A stretch of DNA of 62,108 bases, the filler included. It is 14 parts of 14 records of this genome, joined end to end, with 100 filler letters (N's around TTAATTAATTAA, not from the genome) between each part and the next. Parts side by side here need not be neighbours in the genome. Positions count along the whole stretch, not along the records: positions 24,381 to 29,634 come from SRR7504441_52599; 13 more parts are not named here. One strand, given 5' to 3'. The position numbers and the translations under genes are program-made. How positions within the stretch are numbered: position 1 is the first letter of the stretch; each line of letters starts with the position of its first letter. Shown here piece after piece: positions 3,902 to 30,155 of the stretch. The notes beneath the pieces are model-generated. The model did no database searches. It saw only the letters and a program-made list of their open reading frames with translations, and was not told the DNA's origin.

Positions 3902-4001
3902 NNNNNNNNNNNNNNNNNNNNNNNNNNNNNNNNNNNNNNNNNNNNTTAATTAATTAANNNNNNNNNNNNNNNNNNNNNNNNNNNNNNNNNNNNNNNNNNN
4001 N
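3902..4001. other. Artificial contig-join spacer (N44-TTAATTAATTAA-N44)
   Basis: The identical 100-nt spacer with stops in all six frames also occurs at 8971-9070, 14799-14898, 18250-18349, 24281-24380, 29635-29734, 34304-34403, 37497-37596, 41568-41667, 44835-44934, 49442-49541, 52784-52883 and 58950-59049. Confidence 0.98.
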
Positions 4002-8970: not shown

Positions 8971-9070
8971 NNNNNNNNNNNNNNNNNNNNNNNNNNNNNN
9001 NNNNNNNNNNNNNNTTAATTAATTAANNNNNNNNNNNNNNNNNNNNNNNNNNNNNNNNNNNNNNNNNNNN

Positions 9071-14707: not shown

Positions 14708-15088
14708 TAAAAAGTATATGTGCTTGATAGTCAGGACGAAGTGGCGGAGGAGGGCCTAGTGGTTTCGCGGCGGGCTTACTCACCATGTTTGTTCTTCGNN
14801 NNNNNNNNNNNNNNNNNNNNNNNNNNNNNNNNNNNNNNNNNNTTAATTAATTAANNNNNNNNNNNNNNNNNNNNNNNNNNNNNNNNNNNNNNNNNNNNGT
14901 TTGCGCAGTTGGGACCCATCAAATCTATCGAGTACCTGTCGAGTACACTATACTCGTACTGATGGAAGGCTTAAACTTACTACTCGTAATTATAAATTGA
15001 ATGCATGCCCAGTTCATTCAATTTAATGATGAACATTAGATCAACACCCCGTGGATGCACAACTTTCACAAGTACGTATCTACAAATT

Positions 15089-18249: not shown

Positions 18250-18720
18250 NNNNNNNNNNNNNNNNNNNNNNNNNNNNNNNNNNNNNNNNNNNNTTAATTA
18301 ATTAANNNNNNNNNNNNNNNNNNNNNNNNNNNNNNNNNNNNNNNNNNNNTATTCGTGATCGATATGAAATGAGATTTAAGTAGTACGTACATGATGTCTA
18401 TCGAGACATCGTTCTTAATGTTCAGAGCGTCCAAAGCTCGCCGTTAATACGAGGGTGCCGGGGTGATACTCTGAGATTCTACTTGGAAGTATCTTATATA
18501 CCTATTTCGACCTCGCTGAATCGATTTATGATACTCCCGAGGACTCCCGGAGCTTTTTTAAACCCGATATTTGAATTTGAATTCGAAAAATCATCAGTTT
18601 CAGCGGGCCTCTGAAATGAAATCGTGAAATCTGAAACACTGATAGGTCTGCTGACATGATTTTTAAACGAAGCTCATCAGGACTTCGCAGCAGCAGCGCG
18701 GGCAAGGCAAGCTTCGCGGC

Positions 18721-21700
18721 ATGGTTGATGAGCGGGCAGAGCTGCTGCGGCGGCTCCAGGCCGGGGAGGAGGGTGCCTACAGCGCAACGATGCAGTACCT
18801 ATGGCCACGGGAGCACTGGTGGTGCAAGCACGGCCAGCTGATGCAGCTGTGCGCCTACGTACTCCAGTTCCACAACAATACAGTCGAGCCCTTCCGCGCC
18901 CGGATGGGCAGCCAGCTCGACAGCTGCCCGCGCTGCGTGGCAGCATACCACGCGGCAAAGCCCGAGGTGCGTCAGCGGTTCACCGCCCGATATTCCCCCG
19001 AATCAGTCAGTAAATTCTTCGGCAAGCTCCGAGCGCTCGACTGCGGGAGGCTGGCAGCCGGCCTGGCCAGGGAAGGTCAGCCGGCGCTTAACGCGCTGCA
19101 CGAGGTGCTCCACTACCAATCGACTCTCGAGAGTGCAGTCTTGTGCACAGCAGTTGCGCGGCTGGTGCGCCGATTCGGTCATGGGTTGCCGGCGCCCGAT
19201 TGGTCGAGCGAGGAATGGGGCCGGTCGCGGTGCGCAGGGATGTACCGGCTGCTGCTGCACAGCGACACCCAGCTCCGCAGCTGGAGCCACGCGGTGGTCC
19301 AAGCCTGGGGGCCGATCCAGAGCCCGGAGCAGCTGGTGAGCATTCTCCCTGTGGCCGAGAGGTGCCTCCAGGTGCTCGAACAGGACGACTTCCGATCCAA
19401 TGCCGCCGGCCCCGAGCCGACCGACCCTGAGATTCGGTTCCAGCACACCCGCACCGGGTTCTGGAACGGGTTGTGCGCAATGCTAGAGTCCGTGGAGGCA
19501 GTGGCATTTGGGCAGCTCGTGAGCAGCTTCCCGACAATGCTCGACACCGTGACGCTGCAGCTTAGCGCCGGTGTTGTGCTCTGGCAGACAATCAGGTGTC
19601 TGGCAATCTTCATTGAGCGACTTGGCGAGGACTTCTGGGAGCTGTGCTCGCTTAGTCCGGAGTTCCTCATAGACAGCGTGGTGGCTGTCTGCTTGCAAGA
19701 CAGGCCACTGGAGCTACTCCACCGGCACGCGATCAAGCTCATGGAGGCCGCCGCCGGCTCACTGACCACTGCAGCGCACGCTGCCAACCTCGGCTCGATC
19801 GGCAGTTTTCTGCTCGGTGCTTTGGTGCTTTCAAGGTCGACTAGCGGCACGATTCGCTCAGTGGCCCGGATTAAGGGGCTTGGGGTGGTGGCCCAGTGCG
19901 CTGAGTACGATATTGCGCTCCCGGGGACTGCGACTGCCTGTTCTGCTGCTCTTCGCCAGGCCCTCTCGCTGACTGGCAGCACAGATGCGCTCAGAGCGCA
20001 GGGGCTCGAATGCCTCAGTGCACTGCTTTGGCATGACGTTCGGTTGGCTGAGCAACTTATGCAGCCGAATTGCGCCGCTACTCAGCGGCAATCGGCGAGC
20101 GATCGGTACTGGGAGCTTGCAGCGACCGGCTGCAGCTGCAACCCGGCTGTGTTAGAGCTGGTGCTCGAGTGCCACATGTCTCTGGGCTTTGGGGACGGTG
20201 CATATGACAGCCAGATGCCGAGCGCTGGGCGGCGGCTTCTGGCTAAGCTCCGCAAGGGCCTGTGCGACTGCCTCGCCCAGGCTTCATTGCTATCGCTTTC
20301 CAGCGAAAGCTCCGCCAGGGGTTTGATGTTTCTGCTGCTCTGCCCTGACGCCCTGGTGAGGACTGCAGTGGAGGCAGCGTTGAAGAGGTTGGCCACCACA
20401 CAGAACCGGCGCCAAGCTCTCTTGTATACAATTAGGAAGTACCCTTCAGCCACAGTGCGCGCCTGGGAGAGTGGAATTGCTGGCATTCTGCAGGTGAAGC
20501 CTCGTAACTGCTTTGGGTGCTGGTCAGCTGTGTCTCAGCTCTCCCACATGCTTCCAAGGCTTGCCTCCGAAGAAGTCAGCCTGGAGGCCGTGGCATGTCG
20601 CAAGCTAAACCACGGACTTTGGGCGATACTCCGCAGAATTCTACAGGCGGCTCCGAAGTTTGCCCAAAATGCGGCGTTCGAGGCAACAATGTGCCAGTTT
20701 CTCGACGCGTTCCTTTCCTTTTGGCGGGAGTATGCCTCACATGGAAAAGACGAGATTAAAAGTGATGCCAGGACCGAGCTGCTTATCATGCTCCTCTACC
20801 TTGGACCGGCTTGCACTGGAGAATCGCTGCGTCGAAGGTGGATGCACCTCGCACTGAAGCTATCGTCCGACTTGAACGCTGCCCAAATTTTAGCTCCGAC
20901 CCAATCGCTAGTCGAAGCGACACGAGCATGCTTTTGCGCAATGCATGGCGCACTCACGCAGTCTCAGCGGGAGCAGTTGCGCGAGGCATTGCCATGGGTG
21001 CTCAAGAGTGGTAACGTTTCTCAAGGAAGCACAGAGCAGTGGCCTTCTAGAGGCCCAACCAATGCTCAGGCTGCCAAGATCCCTGCCGCCAAGCCGCGTG
21101 CGCAGACCTCGGGAACACAAGCTGCCCCGACCAGAATGATAGGTGCAAACCGAAGTCAGGCTCCGAGCTACAAGCCTGCACTTAAAGATCCAGTGAATTC
21201 GCATAACTGGTCAGCCTACTTGGGCCCTGACAACCCGGAGGAGTTCGATGCGCGGATGTATGCAGCACCTGGAGCAAACGATACCAAGAGGCCGAGGAGA
21301 AAGGTGCAAATGATGGATGGTTCGGCGGCAAAGTTGTCAGCTAAGGCCGTTGCAAGAAGGACATTGCAGGCAGTGGCAACCCAGGAGAGTGTAGAGAAAG
21401 CCGCATTGAAGGAGATGCAGCGTGAGGTGCTTTCATGGGACATGGAAAAGATTCTTGACCCAGCTGACGTCATGAGCCTCCAGCCAATTCTTCGCGCCCC
21501 GAAGACCATACATGAATATCAAGCTAAACTTAAGCCGATGCTTCTGGATGAGGTTCGCACCCAAGTTAAGCAAGCAATTGAGCTGAAGCCTGAGGGGCTG
21601 AGCGCCAAGCTCGTGTCAGTAGAACGATCTTCAGAGTTTCACACTATGCGACTTTCCCTCACAGGCTCAGGGATTGACATGCGCGAAAATGTAAATTTGC

Positions 21701-24149
21701 CACTGATGCGGTCCTTTAACTTTTGTTTGGTAGGATCTCGTGTTGGTGTCAAAGCTACAATTGGCTGAGCTCTGCGATGAATCTCGGCCATTAAGCTCTC
21801 GACAACTTTACGCGCTGGGTCGCTTTGACAAGATCATCCGAGCCCCAAAGCGTAAGGAAACAGCTTCCTTGCCGGTATTCCTGCCAATGGTGCCTGCTCA
21901 GTCATGACCATGGTTGGCCCTGTCAGGAAGCAAGCGTCGTCATATACATGGGTCAGGCTGCTAGGTCGGGCATTCTCAAGAAGAGCATGTCCATTGGATC
22001 TTCGTGGTTCTTATCGAGGCTAGATAGCCTGACGACCGCGTTCCGCCAATGCACCGCTCTTGCAGCACTGCCGTACTTTGACAAGTCTCTGCAAAGCACC
22101 GTGCTGAATCCAACTTACTTATCAACTAGCAGAGGAGACACTGTGTCCAAAATCTGTGAGAGCGACTACAATCCAAGCCAACTTCGGGCCATTCAGGAGG
22201 CCAGTGCGCTGCAGAAGGGCTTTTGCCTCCTCCAAGGGCCGCCTGGCACTGGCAAGACACACACAATTGTTGGACTTCTTAGCCAGCTTAGCTCATCATC
22301 TCTCGGGTGCAAGAGACGTATCCTACTTTGTGCCCCTTCGAACGCTGCCGTTGATGAGATTGCTGTTCGGCTGATCGCCGGTACTCGGGCGAAGGATGGC
22401 AGTCTTTGTCGTCTCAAAGTTGTGCGAATTGGCAACCCGGAATCAATTCATCCAGACGTGCGTGGCATTCACATTGACACTGTTGCCGGGCAGTCTGGGA
22501 CGGAACAAGTAGATGCCAAAGAGATCGAGCAACAGACCTTACAATCTGAGCTCCAAGAGGTCACGCTGTGTTGTTGACCGCCCTCTAACGCTAGCTGTCA
22601 GGTGCGTACAGAGCTGGAAAAGGTTGGGGCGACTATTGGCAAAGTCCACCGAGCACGGGCAGAGTTGTCTGATGGCATGGATGATTACGAATCAATGACT
22701 ATCGAACTGACCCAAATGCATGAAAAAAAGAGCAAACTGAGCCGGCAACTGGGATCCCTCTTGGGCAAGACGCGAGGAATGCGCAAGGAGGTCGCCCTAT
22801 CCAGTTTCACTTGATGTGCTGACTCGACGCTATTTACAGGTGTCCGGTATACGCGAACAAGCCAAGATAAGAGCGTTGGAGTCTGCTGATGTAGTCTGTG
22901 CCACGCTCACTGGAAGCGGAGTGCCATACTTGCGCCAGGTGAAAGCTGGGTTCGATACAGTGGTAGTAGACGAGGCAGCACAAGCAGTCGAGCTTGCCAC
23001 GCTGATTCCGCTGCGGAATGTGTGCAAGTGTTGCATCATGGTGGGTGACCCGAAGCAGCTCCCGGCCACAGTCCTATCTCAGCATGCTAAGCGCGCAGGG
23101 TACGATAGGTCCATGTTCGAGCGAATGCAGCAATGCGGCCATCCGCTCCACATGCTTGATGTCCAATACCGTATGCACCCAGACATATGTTCATTCCCAT
23201 CTAGGCACTTCTATGGCGCGAAACTGACTTCCAGTGAGACAGTCTTCCAGCGAACCAACCCGCGAGCTCGAGGTAGAGAGGGGTTCCTGGAGGCTGTGAG
23301 GTTCTGTGACACGCATGGTCAATGTCCAGCCCAGCAGACCTCTAACAAATCTTGGAAGAACCCCGGCGAGGCGCGGCTTGTGGCTGAATTGATAAAGGCC
23401 GTCGCAACCATGTGTGTTGGAATCAGCCATCAGTCAATTGGTGTCATAACGCCATATGCCAGCCAGGCACGTGAGATTCGCGGTTGTCTAGCTCGCAGTA
23501 CATCAGGGCTTCCATTCTCGGGTTCGGATATCGAAGTGAATACTGTGGATGGATTTCAGGGTCGGGAGAAAGAGATCATCATTTTATCTTGTGTTAGATC
23601 CGGGGGGCGCGTTGGCTTTGTCGCAGGTTATCCCAAGCCTAGTTGCTTCTCACTCATCCTCGTGCTTTTGCAGATACGCGTCGGATGAATGTCGCAATTA
23701 CCAGAGCAAAGTACGCTCTTGTCGTCCTAGGAGACGGCAGTACTTTATCCCAGAGTCCAGATTGGGCAGCCCTGGTTGCCGATGCTAAAAAGAGAGGGTT
23801 CTACCACCAGATTGATCCCAAAGCTGCGGCCAAGGTTGTCAAATTCAGCAATCCAAAACTTAAACCTGAAAAGAGGCCTGGTCATGATAAGGAATCCAAG
23901 AGACCCAAAGCAGTAGCCAGACAACCGTCGGTTAGCGAACCGCCAAAGAGCGGCTCTCGTAAATCGCACGAAACTCCTCGAAGCAATCTGCAGCGTGAAC
24001 AAACTGTGCACCCGATGAAAGCTTCTAACCTGCAGCAAACAAAAGCCAAACCTAAAGCCGAAAAGCCTAATTATAAAAGGCTGCTTCACGAAGCAAGTGC
24101 AACCCCAAAAGAGAAAAAGCGCAGGACCATTGTGATTCTCGATGATTGA
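18721..24149 (+). CDS. SETX: Senataxin/SEN1 SF1 RNA-DNA helicase, 5 introns
   Basis: SEN1_N motif HWWC...CPRCVAAYH. Helicase motifs LLQGPPGTGKT, CAPSNAAVDE, VDEAAQ, VGDPKQL, QYRMHP, ITPY, VNTVDGFQGREK, RRMNVAITRAK. Confidence 0.93.
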
Positions 24150-24380
24150 TCAACACGAGATGTAAAGCTTAATAATGTTAATAGCCTAGCTACCATACTA
24201 TACGAAGCTAGTCTACTATAAGAGTATCACAACTGAATATCATGCTACTGGTGTAGTCGGAGTCCTCGAGCTCCGGCCGGNNNNNNNNNNNNNNNNNNNN
24301 NNNNNNNNNNNNNNNNNNNNNNNNTTAATTAATTAANNNNNNNNNNNNNNNNNNNNNNNNNNNNNNNNNNNNNNNNNNNN

Positions 24381-24937
24381 GACACCGGCATGCCGCTGTT
24401 TGGATTCAGAAGCCGGCGAGCTGACATTGGCATGCCGCTGTTTGGATTCGGGCAGCCAGCCCAGCACTTCGGCGGCCCGCTCTAAATCCAGAGCAGACAC
24501 TTGAGCCGACACCTCGGCCGCTGTTCGGGCTCGGGCCTCGGGCGCGCTCCCCGTCTGGGCCGTCTGGACCTCGGGCGATGCAGTGACGTTTGTTGGCGAC
24601 GCTTGGGCCTGCCAGGCAGCTCAGCCAGCCGTCGCCAGTGTGAGATCACCTCTGGGCTGGACTGGCGAGCGCAGCGCTTGGTCACCTCGTTCAGGAATGC
24701 TATCTCGGGCAGCCCTTTGCAGGCCGCCCGGAGCGCCTGCACGAACTCCTGCCGGCGCACCGCACCGCCGCCCGCTCTGAGCAGCGCGCGGAACGGCTCC
24801 TTGAACTTGAGGGCCGCCGGGCCGCCGACCAGCCTGCGGGCCTCTTCGAGCTGCTCGAGCTGGGTCGCGCTGAGCGCGCCGGTGCCGCCGCAGTCGAGCG
24901 CCGCGAACAGCTTCTTCATCGGTCGGTCGGTCGACAT
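24381..24937 (-). CDS. EF-hand-like protein, 3'-partial
   Basis: LFAALDCGGTGALSATQL is EF-like. A 42-nt-period repeat lies at 24387-24449 near the contig edge. Confidence 0.5.
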
Positions 24938-25098: not shown

Positions 25099-27669
25099 AT
25101 GGAGGGACTGAAGCCTTTGAAGCTGATGGTCCGGTGGCCGGGCGGGCAGCAGCGGCAGGAGGTAGAGGGAGACTGCTGCGTGCGGGAGCTGCAGGTCGTC
25201 GTGGGATCGCTTACCGGGATTGCGCCGGAGCGCCAGAGGATCCAGTTCGGCGTCCCGCCCAGTGCGCTGCCGCTCGCCGACCCGGACGCCCCGCTCCGGG
25301 AGCTCGGGCTGGAGCGGGGCGACATCGTGATGGTCGAGCCCGATCAATCGGCCGAGCCCGAGCCACCGACTGTCAGCCAGGCGCCGCACCCGACGGCCAG
25401 TGGCGGGCGATCGTTCGGGTCCGGAGCAATCTCGGGGAACCTTGGAAGCAGGGACGGTTCGGCCACTGTCACTGCCACCACGCTGGGTGAGCCGATCGAA
25501 TCGGCACCGCCAGAGGAAGAGCAGTTGCATCCGACCATGGCTTCGATGCAGCAGCAGGCGGCACCCAAGACTGCCCTCGAGCTGTATGACCTAGTGGTCG
25601 AGACATGGGGCGAAGCCGTGCCTGCCGACACGTGCGAGCGCATCCGGAACGACATTGCGGAGGTGGAGGCCACCGCCGGGGCTGACATCGTTGTGAAGCC
25701 TGTCAAGGACTCGCCACTCCATTTGGAGGTGCGGCTCAAGAAGTTTGACCAGCAGTCGGCCCTCGGGCAAGACCTGGAAGTGCTCGCCAGAGCCTGCGGG
25801 CGGTACCCAGCCGCTGTGGAGCTTGTGGTCGAATTCGGACTGGACTACCCGCACAGCCCGCCCTTTGTGCGGATTTTCACACCGCGACTGCAGTATCTGA
25901 CTGGTAACGTGACCTTTGGAGGCAGCTTCAATACATTCTACACGACACCTGATGGGTGGCAGGGCGGGACAGCCATATCCCTGGCGCAGCTGCTTGTGCA
26001 GCTGAGGGAGCAGCTACTGCAGGGGAACGCCCAAGTAGACGCCCGCAACTTCCAGGCTGCCGAGAAAACCAGCAACGCCCTCTGCTACTCGGAGGAGGAA
26101 GCGAGGGCCGCCGAGTCTAGAGTGGCGACGCACTCAGACCAGATCGCCGGAGGGCAAGGCGAACTGGGGAAGACAGGGCGGGAGTTTCGGAGCTTCCCGT
26201 CGTCTCATTTCATCCAGCAGACGGGGAAGATGTTCTCACGCAATTTTGAGATGGGCAACCGGGTCTACCTGCATAAGAAGGTGGCGGGGCGGGCGGTGGC
26301 TAGTGAGGGCCGGGTGCAGGTGATGGAAGAGATGATGCTAGATAATCCAGATTTCAAGTTCCCGATGTACTTTGAGCTGACAACCCCCAACAACGTGACC
26401 ACCCATGTCTGCCCCTTCGAGTTTCAAGAGCTGCCCGAGCGGGACATGGTGGTCTTGCCCTCATGGCTGCATAAAGACCTGCAGCTGATGCCCGGGCAGC
26501 CTGTCAAGCTCCGTTGTGTCCAAATGCGCGGCCAGCCCGTGGCGATCAGAGTGATGCCAGTCTCCAAGGCGTTCAGCGCCGTGGAGAACCCGCAGGCCCA
26601 GCTTCAGTGGGGGCTGCGGCGGTATGGCACACTCACAATCGGCGACTCAATAGTGGTGGAGACTGCGCAAGGCCCCACACTGCTGCATGTCCTTGGAGTG
26701 CAGACAGACGAGGGCCCGCTCCCGCCTGGCTGCGGCACTTCCATTGTGCCGATGGGCAACTCGCCGCTGCGCGTGCTGTGTGACTTTGCTCCGTCGCCCG
26801 AGGATGCGCCAGCCGAGCACAGCCTCATGCACATGGAGATGATAGTTAGAAGCAACGAGGCCCCGGAGCAGATATTGGCGGAGGTGGCTGCGGCCAGTGG
26901 GATCAAGGAGTCCCGACTGAGGAACCTGCAATGCCCTGAGCCGGGCAAGCTGGTGTTCACCATCTGGGATGACGGGAGCACGCCAAGTGCAGCCAAACTG
27001 GCAACTGAATTAATTGTAAAATGGCACCAGGGCCGGTTACTTTCGTCAGCGCTGGACCTGGCAATCAACGACGAGAATTACAACACCACACTGGCTGCGC
27101 TGGAGGATCCTGACGGCAAGCAGCTGCAGCAGACCCTAGCACGGGCAGTGCCGGTGGGCGTCGAGGTGGCACCCGGGCTGGACAATGAGGCAGCTGATAG
27201 CCCGTTCCTAGCACTCGGCCTGCACAGGGAGGCGTCCGTCTCGCTAGTGGAGGAGAGGCTGTCTGCTCTTGGGTTTGCCAGGGAGGACGTGCGATTTGTT
27301 GTAAACCAGACGAATGGGCTATCCATGTCGATCGCGGAAAAGATGCTCCGGACTATGAGGGAGCTTGAGAGTGAACATAGTCATGTGAGCAAAGATCAAA
27401 TTCATTTCCTAATTGCAGCCTCGCATGGGGATCTGGATTTGGCGCGGAGCATGCTAGGCCAGCACAATGCGACCAGGACGACAGGTCCTGGCGTGGGGGG
27501 ATACAGCGCTGCTGCGGATACTGTTGATGATGAAGCCATCCTTGCGCAGATACTAGAGCAGAGCCGGTCAGAGTTCACAGAGGCACAAGCACAACCCGGC
27601 ATGCTAGACACGACAGACGACGATGAGCTGCTAGCACGCATGCTAGCACAGAGCATGGAGGATCGATAG
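25099..27669 (+). CDS. Multidomain ubiquitin-pathway protein: UBL, inactive UBE2Q-like E2 fold, UFD1 (UT3) domain, UBA-like, 2 UIM
   Basis: Single 856-aa ORF. UBL TGIAPERQRIQFGVPP; E2 DYPHSPPFVRIFTPRL..GNVTFGGS; UFD1 GNRVYL..FPMYFEL..THV..FEF..VLPSW..YGTLTIGD..DFAP; UIMs DDEAILAQILEQS and DDDELLARMLAQS. Confidence 0.85.
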   Translation: MEGLKPLKLMVRWPGGQQRQEVEGDCCVRELQVVVGSLTGIAPERQRIQFGVPPSALPLADPDAPLRELGLERGDIVMVEPDQSAEPEPPTVSQAPHPTASGGRSFGSGAISGNLGSRDGSATVTATTLGEPIESAPPEEEQLHPTMASMQQQAAPKTALELYDLVVETWGEAVPADTCERIRNDIAEVEATAGADIVVKPVKDSPLHLEVRLKKFDQQSALGQDLEVLARACGRYPAAVELVVEFGLDYPHSPPFVRIFTPRLQYLTGNVTFGGSFNTFYTTPDGWQGGTAISLAQLLVQLREQLLQGNAQVDARNFQAAEKTSNALCYSEEEARAAESRVATHSDQIAGGQGELGKTGREFRSFPSSHFIQQTGKMFSRNFEMGNRVYLHKKVAGRAVASEGRVQVMEEMMLDNPDFKFPMYFELTTPNNVTTHVCPFEFQELPERDMVVLPSWLHKDLQLMPGQPVKLRCVQMRGQPVAIRVMPVSKAFSAVENPQAQLQWGLRRYGTLTIGDSIVVETAQGPTLLHVLGVQTDEGPLPPGCGTSIVPMGNSPLRVLCDFAPSPEDAPAEHSLMHMEMIVRSNEAPEQILAEVAAASGIKESRLRNLQCPEPGKLVFTIWDDGSTPSAAKLATELIVKWHQGRLLSSALDLAINDENYNTTLAALEDPDGKQLQQTLARAVPVGVEVAPGLDNEAADSPFLALGLHREASVSLVEERLSALGFAREDVRFVVNQTNGLSMSIAEKMLRTMRELESEHSHVSKDQIHFLIAASHGDLDLARSMLGQHNATRTTGPGVGGYSAAADTVDDEAILAQILEQSRSEFTEAQAQPGMLDTTDDDELLARMLAQSMEDR

Positions 27670-28144
27670 ATGGTGGATAGATGTAGATACTGCGTAGATG
27701 GATCTACATTAATTAACGAGCACAAGATCGAACTTTACGATAACTTTACGACTTGTGATCCTACCTGTATATGAACTCGTTCACTTTACGTTCACTGATC
27801 GGAGTAATGATAAAGCTTGCTCTATCTTATTGGTATCTTATTGGGGGCATTGCTTTAAACAAGGTTCCTAATAAACGAATTGCTCGAGCTCATTCCCACC
27901 TAGGTTATGTTAAGTTATGTGATGAGCTAATGTGAGCCTTAAGGACCCGATCCTTGAGCTCACCTAAGCTCACCGGTTTTAACACATGATTTAACATCTC
28001 GAGAAATCACACCTCGATTCATGGTTCCACCTTAGACTACCTTAGACTAAACTCAAGTATGGACTGTCAGACAACGACAGTTACTATTGACGCGTCTACT
28101 GAAGGCTTCCGTCGGTTCTAAGTGAGTTGGAACCGCAATTTGCG

Positions 28145-29415
28145 TTAGTCGAAAAGCTCCCAGCTGTCGTCGTCTTCCACCCGCTCACACGGCTTTGTGA
28201 CAGCTTTGCGCAGCACCGGAGCTTCCACCTGCCCTAATATCAGCTCTCGGCCCAAGCCGGCCAACTCTCCTCCGGCCTTCGCACCAAGCTCCATATCTGC
28301 ACATGCGGGCAACCTGCCGCCGCATCGGGCTCCCCACGCAGTCGTACGCACCTTTGTTCAGCTCGGGGTCCAGCTCGGACAGCGCGCACTCAAACCAGCG
28401 CTCGAGCAGCTCCCAGAGCCGGTCCTCCGCCTCCGATCTCCGGCTGCCCCTGCCTGAGCGAGAGCATCGGCTGTGATAACCGGTGCGCCAGTATCACTAC
28501 GGTCTCCGGGGTGCATAGACTGGCCAGCGTGCGGGCGAGCCGCGAGCTCCCGTCGTCGTTGTACCCAAGGTCCGACCCGAGCACCTGACCGGCTGCTCTG
28601 CCCCAGTCGCCTCCGGGCGCACAATGTCAAAGCTGCCTGCCAGCCAACTGTGCGGCTGCCCCCACTCTAGCGGCACCACAGTCCCCTCCACCTGGTTGGG
28701 CAGATTGGCCTCGGCCAGTCCGCAGAGCTCCGCCCGGTCTGTAAGCGTCACGCGCGCTCCAAGAAGACCGGCGCACACGCCAACCAGCCCTGCAGACCGA
28801 TCCGAGCCGGACCCCGGCATAGGTGCACCGGTGCCGCTGCCCAGCTCGAGCGCGCTCTTGCCAGCCCAGGCGCCCGGCTCGAGGTATTTCTCCAAGTACC
28901 TTCCACCTCCGGTCGGCCGGCCTGGGGAGGGGGCGGCACCGGGCGAAGACCAGCCCGGCATCCCAGACCATCCCGCCTGTGAGCCCCCCCTCCACCAGCA
29001 GCTGTCGGTCCTCTCTGATGGCCAGCTGCTCCCCCAGGAACTCCAATCGTCGCTCCATCACCAGCCGCTGACCGTCGCACCCATCAGCCGCCCCGATCCG
29101 CACCGGCGGCGTCCACACCGCCAGCGCCCGATCGCCGCAGCTCACGCCCACCTGGAAGACTGCGCCGGCTGCCGCGTCGGCCGGGATCGTCAGCGTGCAC
29201 TGCCCACGCCCGGTCTCGTCCAGCCGGACCAGCTCCGGGGCGCAGGCGGCCGGGCCGAGCGCGGTGATCTGGCACTCGAGGCCGGGCAGCGGACTGGGGA
29301 AGCCGGCCTCGTCCTGCAGCTCCCAGCAGAGCTCGGAGGTCCCGCTGGGGGGCAGCGAGACTGGGACAGCCCGGCTGAACACCAGACGGAGCAGCGACTG
29401 GTCCGCCTCAGCCAT
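28145..29415 (-). CDS. METTL21/Methyltransf_16-like protein-lysine methyltransferase, multi-intron
   Basis: Motifs TGGMVWDAGLVFA, ALELGSGTG|LVG, VTLTD, LEWG, FDI|VLGSDLGY. The exact last exon is uncertain. Confidence 0.85.
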
Positions 29416-30155
29416 CACAGACAACTCGCCCGGGCGATTCCGGTACTTGATACCGAGTACTTGTATAGACTACTAGATCACCGTTTGCAAACCGCTTGAA
29501 CTGTTGAGTCTCGCCTGCCCAGAGACGAGGACGACGAGGAACGTGACTGTGATAAACCCATCGGCACACAAGCGACCACACAGCTAAGGCGACATCTTAG
29601 AGACCCAGACTAGGCGTTCGGGGTGGGGGCGGGGNNNNNNNNNNNNNNNNNNNNNNNNNNNNNNNNNNNNNNNNNNNNTTAATTAATTAANNNNNNNNNN
29701 NNNNNNNNNNNNNNNNNNNNNNNNNNNNNNNNNNCCAGCCCGACCAGCTGGCCGCCAGCGCCACGTGGCACAAGTCGACTCGCCATGCGGCAAGCCTTTT
29801 CAGATTGCCAATCGGCAATCTTGCGGCGGTTAGCAACATTAAATTTTTCCGGATGGACGGTCCAGAGAGACCTAGACGAAAATCAATAAACCGCGCGAGT
29901 GAGGATGGACATGTAATTCATGTATCGAGTTTAAGACTACGTATTGAGTACTCAAGTCCAAGGCTCAGTTGCGTGCTTTGCACCGTCCGGTCAACCAGCC
30001 CGGCGTGATCCTTAAATATTGAGCTAGGAGCTTGCTCATGATACTCTATTACTCTATTGATCCATGTTGATCGGATCATGATCATGACGTTGATTGGTAC
30101 GGAATTGAATCGCGAGTTGAGTCAGCAATCGAGACACACCAGCTCAGAATCCGCC

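Follow-up and report, generated by a model that had tools for sequence, protein, structure and literature searches.

The window analysed here, a stretch of 62,108 nucleotides (nt), carries at 25099..27669 on the plus strand an open reading frame (ORF) of 856 codons plus stop. This ORF is real and belongs to a marine protist; its product, P0001, unites an OTU1-type UBX-like domain, an E2-like domain lacking the catalytic cysteine, a UFD1-type UT3 domain and putative UBA-like helices. P0001 is proposed to act as a soluble adaptor between ubiquitin and the unfoldase Cdc48/p97 and to include a UEV-like pseudo-E2, a reading to which a probability of about 0.65 is assigned. The N-terminal UBX-like domain would dock on the N domain of Cdc48; ubiquitin chains would be held by UT3 and the UBA-like bundles, with a possible contribution of the acidic helix at the C-terminus, and the Cys-less E2-like domain would, in the manner of a UEV, bind ubiquitin or serve as a scaffold. 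The E2-like and UT3 domains would together form a rigid core, on which a widespread protist family including P0001 is based. This reading is preferred because P0001 has an OTU1-type domain, because its relatives bear UBX or PUB modules and because UFD1, the protein in which UT3 was already known, is a Cdc48 cofactor.

The UBX-like (OTU1/YOD1-type) beta-grasp domain covered residues 6-81 (25114..25341; all features of P0001 lie on the plus strand). In a phmmer comparison of P0001 with PDB sequences, the UBX-like domain of OTU1 (2kzr) was matched at E 3.6e-10 over residues 20-87, and residues 6-81 displayed a predicted local distance difference test score (pLDDT) of about 80 in the AlphaFold2 (AF2) model. 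The Pfam family OTU1_UBXL (PF21403; cut-off 22.7) was passed by two orthologue rows, P0004 with 25.5 bits and P0160 with 23.9 bits. In pairwise alignment, GVPP of P0001 (residues 51-54) lay over GYPP of OTU1. According to PMC5389986, p97-binding modules comprise UBX, UBX-like and PUB domains, and the UBX-like domain of OTU1 inserts a YPP loop into the p97 N domain. The SHP motif, sought with a regular expression derived from the consensus given there, was found in none of 25 family proteins including P0001, and docking would therefore use the beta-grasp or PUB modules. FGSG near residue 107 was considered as an SHP box and rejected because it did not fit the consensus. The domain was followed by a low-complexity disordered linker (residues 86-145; 25354..25533), weakly conserved relative to P0160 and with pLDDT values below 50 over residues 86-133.

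Residues 150-345 (25546..26133) formed a UBE2Q-like E2 (UBC) fold without catalytic Cys. UBE2Q1 (2qgx) was matched by phmmer at E 3.9e-11 over residues 180-315 and UBE2Q2 (1zuo) at E 3.7e-08. The fold agreed with these matches: in the AF2 model, pLDDT exceeded 90 over residues 150-345, Foldseek against the PDB aligned the structures 1zuo and 2qgx with TMt values of 0.76-0.91, and VIA superposed 1zuo_B on model residues 174-316 with a Z score of 19.5 and a root mean square deviation (rmsd) of 1.3 A over 137 residues (Z 18.3 for 2qgx_B). In the Pfam scan of P0001 (E<=1), UQ_con (PF00179) did not appear; the listed matches, all sub-threshold, were UFD1_N1, UFD1_N2 and a weak RWD match. Pairwise and 150-row alignments both placed Asn278, encoded by AAT at 25930..25932, in the column of the catalytic Cys, with GGAICMELL of UBE2Q1 aligned over GGSFNTFYT of P0001. 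The AAT codon was unchanged in two RNA-library contigs, from runs X5 (25765-25943) and X7 (25826-25976), and Asn was also present at this column in orthologue P0160 (GGTFNTVYT) and in fragment P0002 (76 % identity). Across the 150-row alignment, Cys was present in 107 of 113 rows covering the E2 part alone and in 10 of 28 rows covering E2 and UFD1; in alignment A2 it was kept in 10 of the 29 rows with a residue at that column. As judged by these alignments, the E2-like domain of P0001 lacks the thioester Cys and would be unable to carry ubiquitin.

The UT3-like double-psi barrel of UFD1 type (Pfam N1 plus N2) and a set of conserved linker helices occupied residues 346-572 (26134..26814). Several UFD1 chains in the PDB matched residues ~373-539 at E values from 6.4e-08 to 1e-06 (phmmer), and UFD1 was also ranked first by Foldseek against the PDB (2yuj, E 1.5e-10, TMt 0.78; 1zc1 was matched as well), ahead of UBE2Q2 and UBE2Q1. 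Superposition of 2yuj on model residues 346-565 by VIA gave Z 19.3 for 182 residues at an rmsd of 2.7 A. As expected for a UT3 fold, p97, NSF and PEX1 were matched through their N domains at Z ~14. Residues 360-570 displayed pLDDT values above 90.

According to bioRxiv 10.64898/2026.03.07.710261, UT3 binds two K48-linked ubiquitins, unfolding one of the two via its C-terminal strand, which is held in a cleft; the yeast substitutions L144A, E145K and D191K abolish binding of this strand. This unfolding by UFD1's UT3 is reported there to initiate the processing of substrates at Cdc48/p97, and UBX proteins are reported, in bioRxiv 10.64898/2026.02.26.708172, to boost the ubiquitin-unfolding step. 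Two cleft positions of P0001 are of concern in this respect. When P0001 was aligned with human UFD1 in its full length, Gln503 (26605..26607) stood opposite Glu143 in alpha4 of the cleft; this column contained E in 10, Q in 8, T in 8 and other residues in 3 of 29 rows. Arg558 (26770..26772) stood in a column that was acidic in 23 of 26 rows of the family alignment and is the putative equivalent of Asp189 in human and Asp191 in yeast UFD1, an assignment made by the register of the DF-AP motif rather than by direct alignment to UFD1. Both Q503 and R558 were shared with P0160, which argues that the two changes are conserved rather than random.

When computed with a 132-row alignment, the full-length AF2 model reached a mean pLDDT of 74 and a predicted template modelling score (pTM) of 0.61; the single-sequence model (pLDDT 37) was unusable. 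Values above 90 were reached in the E2 domain as well as in UT3 and the helices linking the two, and the linker columns were conserved in the alignment. In the model, the E2-UT3 core thus looks like one rigid unit.

The C-terminal third was more difficult to assign. Pfam gave no match at E<=10 in residues 560-856, and an Atlas search with residues 572-800 returned no usable match. A small alpha/beta region (residues 577-657; 26827..27069), conserved in P0160, was modelled at pLDDT 45-67. It was followed by a UBA-like three-helix bundle with an LSALGF motif (residues 714-759; 27238..27375) and by a second UBA-like helical pair or bundle (residues 765-791; 27391..27471, pLDDT 86-95), the two bundles together displaying pLDDT values of 81-95. 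The best PDB matches of a two-sequence profile of residues 706-796 were the UBA domain of Ddi1 (E 0.23) and the UBA-like domain of USP25 (E 0.31), both sub-threshold and falling on bundles 1 and 2, respectively. Pfam UBA was found at E 0.098 in P0160 only, at the place matching bundle 1, and the C-terminal profile aligned with P0016, a relative bearing UBA_4, at an hhalign probability of only 0.1. The presence of two UBA-like bundles in P0001 is thus weakly suggested by the model.

Two acidic helices came last. The consensus of UIMs consists of an acidic run followed by hydrophobic-x-x-Ala-x-x-x-Ser-x-x-acidic. UIM-like helix 1 (residues 810-825; 27526..27573) has Ile at the Ala position and was not conserved in P0160; UIM-like C-terminal helix 2 (residues 840-855; 27616..27663) has Met at this position and was conserved there. 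A strict UIM pattern had no match in P0001, which fitted only when Ile or Met was allowed in place of Ala. Residues ~27-41 of relative P0161, located before a Cys-less E2-like domain, were recognised by eye as a canonical-looking UIM with the Ala, although here too the strict pattern was unmatched. UIMs may be recurring accessories in the subfamily of P0161, shared with P0001.

A preliminary description made from the letters alone had listed an Otu1-type ubiquitin-like domain, a UBE2Q-type E2 fold whose catalytic Cys was replaced by Asn, and a UFD1 UT3-like domain. All of these were recovered by the comparisons above, the last in spite of Pfam scores below the cut-offs. The UBA-like region that it also listed was retained as modelled helical bundles, for which profile matches stayed sub-threshold, while its pair of UIMs was not sustained: no Pfam match was obtained, the Ala was replaced in both and only the last motif was kept in P0160. 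Its proposal of a p97 adaptor is upheld as an inference from the OTU1-type domain, the UBX and PUB modules of relatives and UT3, not as an experimental result.

When 1.84 billion representatives were searched with phmmer without an index, 748 proteins passed E<=1e-3, and in many cases the alignment ran through both the E2 and the UFD1 parts. One cluster contained a full-length transcriptome orthologue, P0160 (876 amino acids (aa), 52 % identity), whose collinearity with P0001 began at the UBX-like domain and included the final helix. Within residues 1-26 of P0160, the first 20-odd residues (ending ...DVYKRQ) are presumably translated sequencing-adaptor sequence, in which case translation would really start, like that of P0001, at the Met immediately preceding the UBX-like domain. 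P0004 and P0161 both ended in TLTLTL runs just after PPF.R or PRLQYLT motifs; these runs perhaps stem from retained introns or repeats.

Twenty-one relatives were scanned with Pfam (counts for UQ_con taken at E<=0.01). UFD1_N1 and/or UFD1_N2 were listed for 20 of them (both for 19) and UQ_con for 15. Accessory domains were diverse: UBX in seven relatives (five at or above the cut-off), PUB in one at 51.5 bits, UBA_4 in eight, zinc fingers of XAF1/TRAFD1/Di19 type in four, WWE in three, EF-hands in two, CUE in two and GYF in one. Named sources of E2-UFD1 proteins were Entosiphon sulcatum, Diplonema japonicum, Platysulcus tardus, Percolomonas cosmopolitus, Willaertia magna and Symbiodinium natans, and the core was thus encountered in euglenids, diplonemids, heteroloboseans, a stramenopile and a dinoflagellate, i.e. 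in several supergroups. The preliminary description had considered P0001 lineage-specific, which holds for its exact set of modules and fails for the E2-UFD1 core, present in at least these six named protists. It had also advised a search for UBC plus UFD1 architectures in protists and giant viruses; fusions were found in the former, and the best matches in the latter were to single domains (14-18 % identity).

The phylogeny that it had called for was built for the E2 part (FastTree, 116 rows and 119 columns, weakly resolved). It set 25 of the 26 fused rows apart from the 87 stand-alone E2Q-like rows with an SH-like support of 96, and at least seven changes of Cys state were required. Family members carried automatic labels only ("ufd1", "ubiquitin-protein ligase", "hypothetical protein"). 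No description of a UBC-UFD1 fusion was found by literature searches aimed at it, and a term search of PMC2408969, bioRxiv 10.1101/2025.03.28.645892 and bioRxiv 10.64898/2026.02.26.708172 returned nothing relevant. The protist E2-UFD1 family is thus widespread and apparently undescribed.

Several known systems share parts with P0001, each with clear differences. UFD1 has the same UT3 fold, a double-psi barrel made up of N1 and N2 subdomains; P0001 differs by the absence of an SHP motif and of a recognisable UT6-like tail, by an E2-like domain preceding UT3, by Q503/R558 in the cleft instead of Glu/Asp, and by Pfam scores under the cut-offs. UBE2Q1 and UBE2Q2 were the top matches to residues 174-345 in both sequence and fold and have the YP..PPF.R...P and GG motifs in common with P0001, which in contrast has Asn278 instead of Cys and is fused to UT3; in the tree, fused E2 domains stood apart from an 88-row group of stand-alone E2Q-like proteins. 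UEV proteins (Mms2/UEV1, the UEV domain of TSG101) have a UBC fold without thioester Cys and bind ubiquitin without carrying it; the Cys of P0001 was, however, lost independently, inside a UBE2Q-like branch, and no UEV chain was matched by phmmer among PDB sequences. With OTU1/YOD1, P0001 shares the N-terminal UBX-like domain, in which its GVPP aligns to the GYPP loop, but it lacks an OTU protease domain and has Val in place of the loop Tyr. UBA-UBX adaptors of p47/Shp1, FAF1 and UBXD7 type, as presented in PMC5389986, likewise combine ubiquitin-binding modules with beta-grasp modules that bind the p97 N domain; in P0001 the order is reversed, the beta-grasp being N-terminal, and the adaptors are devoid of an E2-UT3 core.

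The protist fusions themselves have the E2-like and UT3 domains as a common core, which could be aligned with that of P0001 over its whole length. Examples were Symbiodinium natans CAE7606035.1 ('ufd1'), Willaertia magna KAL9654342.1 ('hypothetical protein') and Percolomonas cosmopolitus A0A7S1KQC0 ('C2H2-type domain-containing protein'). They differed by the presence of UBX, UBA_4, zinc-finger, WWE, EF-hand or GYF domains and of long N-terminal extensions, and some of them keep the Cys. Among the protist fusions, the N-terminal UBX-like domain was restricted to P0001 and its close orthologues.

The ORF of P0001 lies on the contig at 24381-29634, and an in-frame stop was located five codons upstream of its ATG. 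Contigs from RNA libraries covered it partially at >=99 % identity (25577-25727, 25765-25976, 26732-26881 and 27227-27762); they came from four runs of three studies, with poly-A and oligo-dT libraries among them. A metatranscriptome contig from run X3 displayed G>A and C>A differences from the ORF at 27330 and 27349, and a second contig of the same run lacked 4 nt in the 3' untranslated region (27708). These differences are probably strain variation.

One segment of the ORF deserves separate treatment. Positions 26281..26319 (residues 395-407, VAGRAVASEGRVQ; GC 0.79) form a candidate tiny intron, 39 nt long, in frame and bounded by GT..AG. None of the 33 other rows of alignment A2 had a counterpart of the segment, nor did P0160; residues 395-400 were modelled with pLDDT below 50, and no RNA contig covered 26281-26319. 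On the same contig, a gene for a Methyltransf_16 lysine methyltransferase (~28190-29415, minus strand; Pfam) contained putative GT..AG introns of 40 nt (28939-28900), 39 nt (28828-28790) and 38 nt (28622-28585), with a GC of 0.69-0.80, as deduced from frame changes at conserved Methyltransf_16 motifs; its 39-nt intron, being in frame and free of stops, would be invisible to an ORF-based reading. Since the 39-nt segment of the P0001 gene is missing in relatives and resembles these 38-40-nt introns of the neighbouring gene, it is most probably an intron, in frame and stop-free by chance. The mature protein would then probably measure 843 aa, not 856.

The Methyltransf_16 family includes the methyltransferase of VCP/p97; adjacency of genes in a eukaryote is, however, no evidence of a functional link with P0001. 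Upstream on the same contig, a divergent ORF of 151 codons (24485-24937, minus strand) started 160 bp before the ATG of P0001, with which it could share a bidirectional promoter arrangement; it displayed a weak EF-hand_6 match (17.8 bits, under the cut-off) and a basic tail. A gene for a SEN1-type helicase (SEN1_N, AAA_11, AAA_12; 18667-24149, plus strand) was found on a different contig, with one exon of 1033 codons and a 47-nt GT..AG intron (23627-23673) in helicase motif VI. The window consists of contigs of ~3-6 kb in a row, separated by 13 artificial linkers of the form N44-TTAATTAATTAA-N44 with stops in six frames (3902-4001, 8971-9070, 14799-14898, 18250-18349, 24281-24380, 29635-29734 and onward), and genes across a linker are therefore not shown to be neighbours.

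A number of observations weigh against P0001 as an adaptor between ubiquitin and Cdc48. Both functions ascribed to it are deduced wholly from domain homology. At the Cdc48 end, OTU1_UBXL was not listed by Pfam for P0001 itself, and the loop opposite YPP of OTU1 reads VPP in P0001 and TPR (GTPR) in orthologue P0160. At the ubiquitin end, P0001 scored below the Pfam cut-offs with UFD1_N1 (PF03152; 26.4 bits, cut-off 29) and UFD1_N2 (PF24842; 27.4 bits, cut-off 37), P0160 reaching 31.5 bits with the former, above the cut-off, and 26.8 bits with the latter. The UT3 cleft is altered (Q503, R558) at the Glu and Asp positions needed for the ubiquitin tail, and because both are changed UT3 of P0001 may not handle ubiquitin as UFD1 does. 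Both UIM-like motifs lack the conserved Ala of the consensus. Finally, RNA libraries can contain DNA, and the matching contigs represented only parts of the gene.

The altered cleft is central to the view that the E2-UT3 core is unrelated to ubiquitin and serves another ubiquitin-like modifier or a peptide tail through a re-wired cleft, the pseudo-E2 being a pure scaffold. It could account for the charge reversal at a column acidic in 23 of 26 rows and for Gln at the Glu position, both changes being common to P0160 and hence conserved. We nevertheless regard it as unlikely, since the UBA-like and UIM-like parts of P0001 and the UBA_4, CUE and UBX domains of the family point to ubiquitin, and the pairing of R558 with the Asp of UFD1 is itself inferred. 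The cleft also loosens the tie to the role of UFD1 at Cdc48, which would suit a proteasome shuttle like Rad23, Dsk2 or Ddi1, in which the ubiquitin-like domain would contact proteasomal receptors, the UBA-like bundles polyubiquitin, and the E2-UT3 core would offer extra ubiquitin-binding surfaces. The UBL-to-UBA order of modules agrees with such a shuttle, and Ddi1 UBA was the best PDB match of the C-terminal profile, if only at E 0.23. The beta-grasp domain, however, matched the UBX-like domain of OTU1 (E 3.6e-10) far better than UBLs of UBLCP1 type (E 0.13-0.19), and paralogous family members bear the Cdc48 modules UBX or PUB, which leaves the shuttle improbable.

Two further explanations concern the gene rather than the function of its product, and both appear very remote. 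The preliminary description took the uninterrupted frame as a sign of retroposition or viral acquisition, and giant viruses do encode UFD1-like proteins and E2s. This interpretation was abandoned. Uninterrupted frames of 400-1033 codons were common in the window, itself composed of short contigs; the GC content at third codon positions of P0001 (0.73) lay among the values of the other long ORFs (0.55-0.855), and the gene probably contains a 39-nt intron that matches the type seen in this genome. Cellular relatives displayed 52-76 % identity, against 14-18 % for the best matches in BFVD, which were single-domain UFD1-like or E2 proteins of giant viruses. Stand-alone UFD1-like proteins matching UT3 at 14-18 % identity were A0A3G5A970 (Hyperionvirus), A0A3G4ZNS9 (Terrestrivirus) and A0A5B8IPP7 (ChoanoV1). 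No match was obtained among IMG/VR viral contigs (pattern plus tblastn) or phage records (tblastn), and none was confirmed among metagenome contigs scanned with P0001, by methods that find close relatives only. A decaying pseudogene or an assembly chimera with a functionless mix of domains might be suspected from the fragmented assembly of short contigs and from the lost E2 Cys; yet 856 codons are open, the domains were modelled with high confidence, an independent transcriptome orthologue displayed the identical order of parts over its full length, and RNA-library contigs matched at >=99 %. The adaptor reading accordingly takes the gene as a native and transcribed part of its genome.

The reading of P0001 as a Cdc48/p97 adaptor can be extended, tentatively and with considerable doubt, to the whole family. 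E2-UT3 proteins would then be an old class of Cdc48/p97 cofactors spread over several supergroups and lacking or lost in animals, fungi and plants. Members with Cys would build or edit chains at the unfoldase, Cys-less members would be UEV-like receptors, and the cleft of the P0001 clade (Q503, R558) would be re-wired for something other than the LRLR tail of ubiquitin.

For annotation, the present results indicate that E2-UFD1 proteins have so far been named by automatic labels only, and that in-frame introns of 38-40 nt can hide in seemingly intact ORFs of this genome. Cys-bearing and Cys-less members would provide paired active and inactive versions for experiments. A family in which UT3 is welded to an E2 fold and docking is left to UBX, UBX-like or PUB modules would illustrate how protists combine these roles in one chain.

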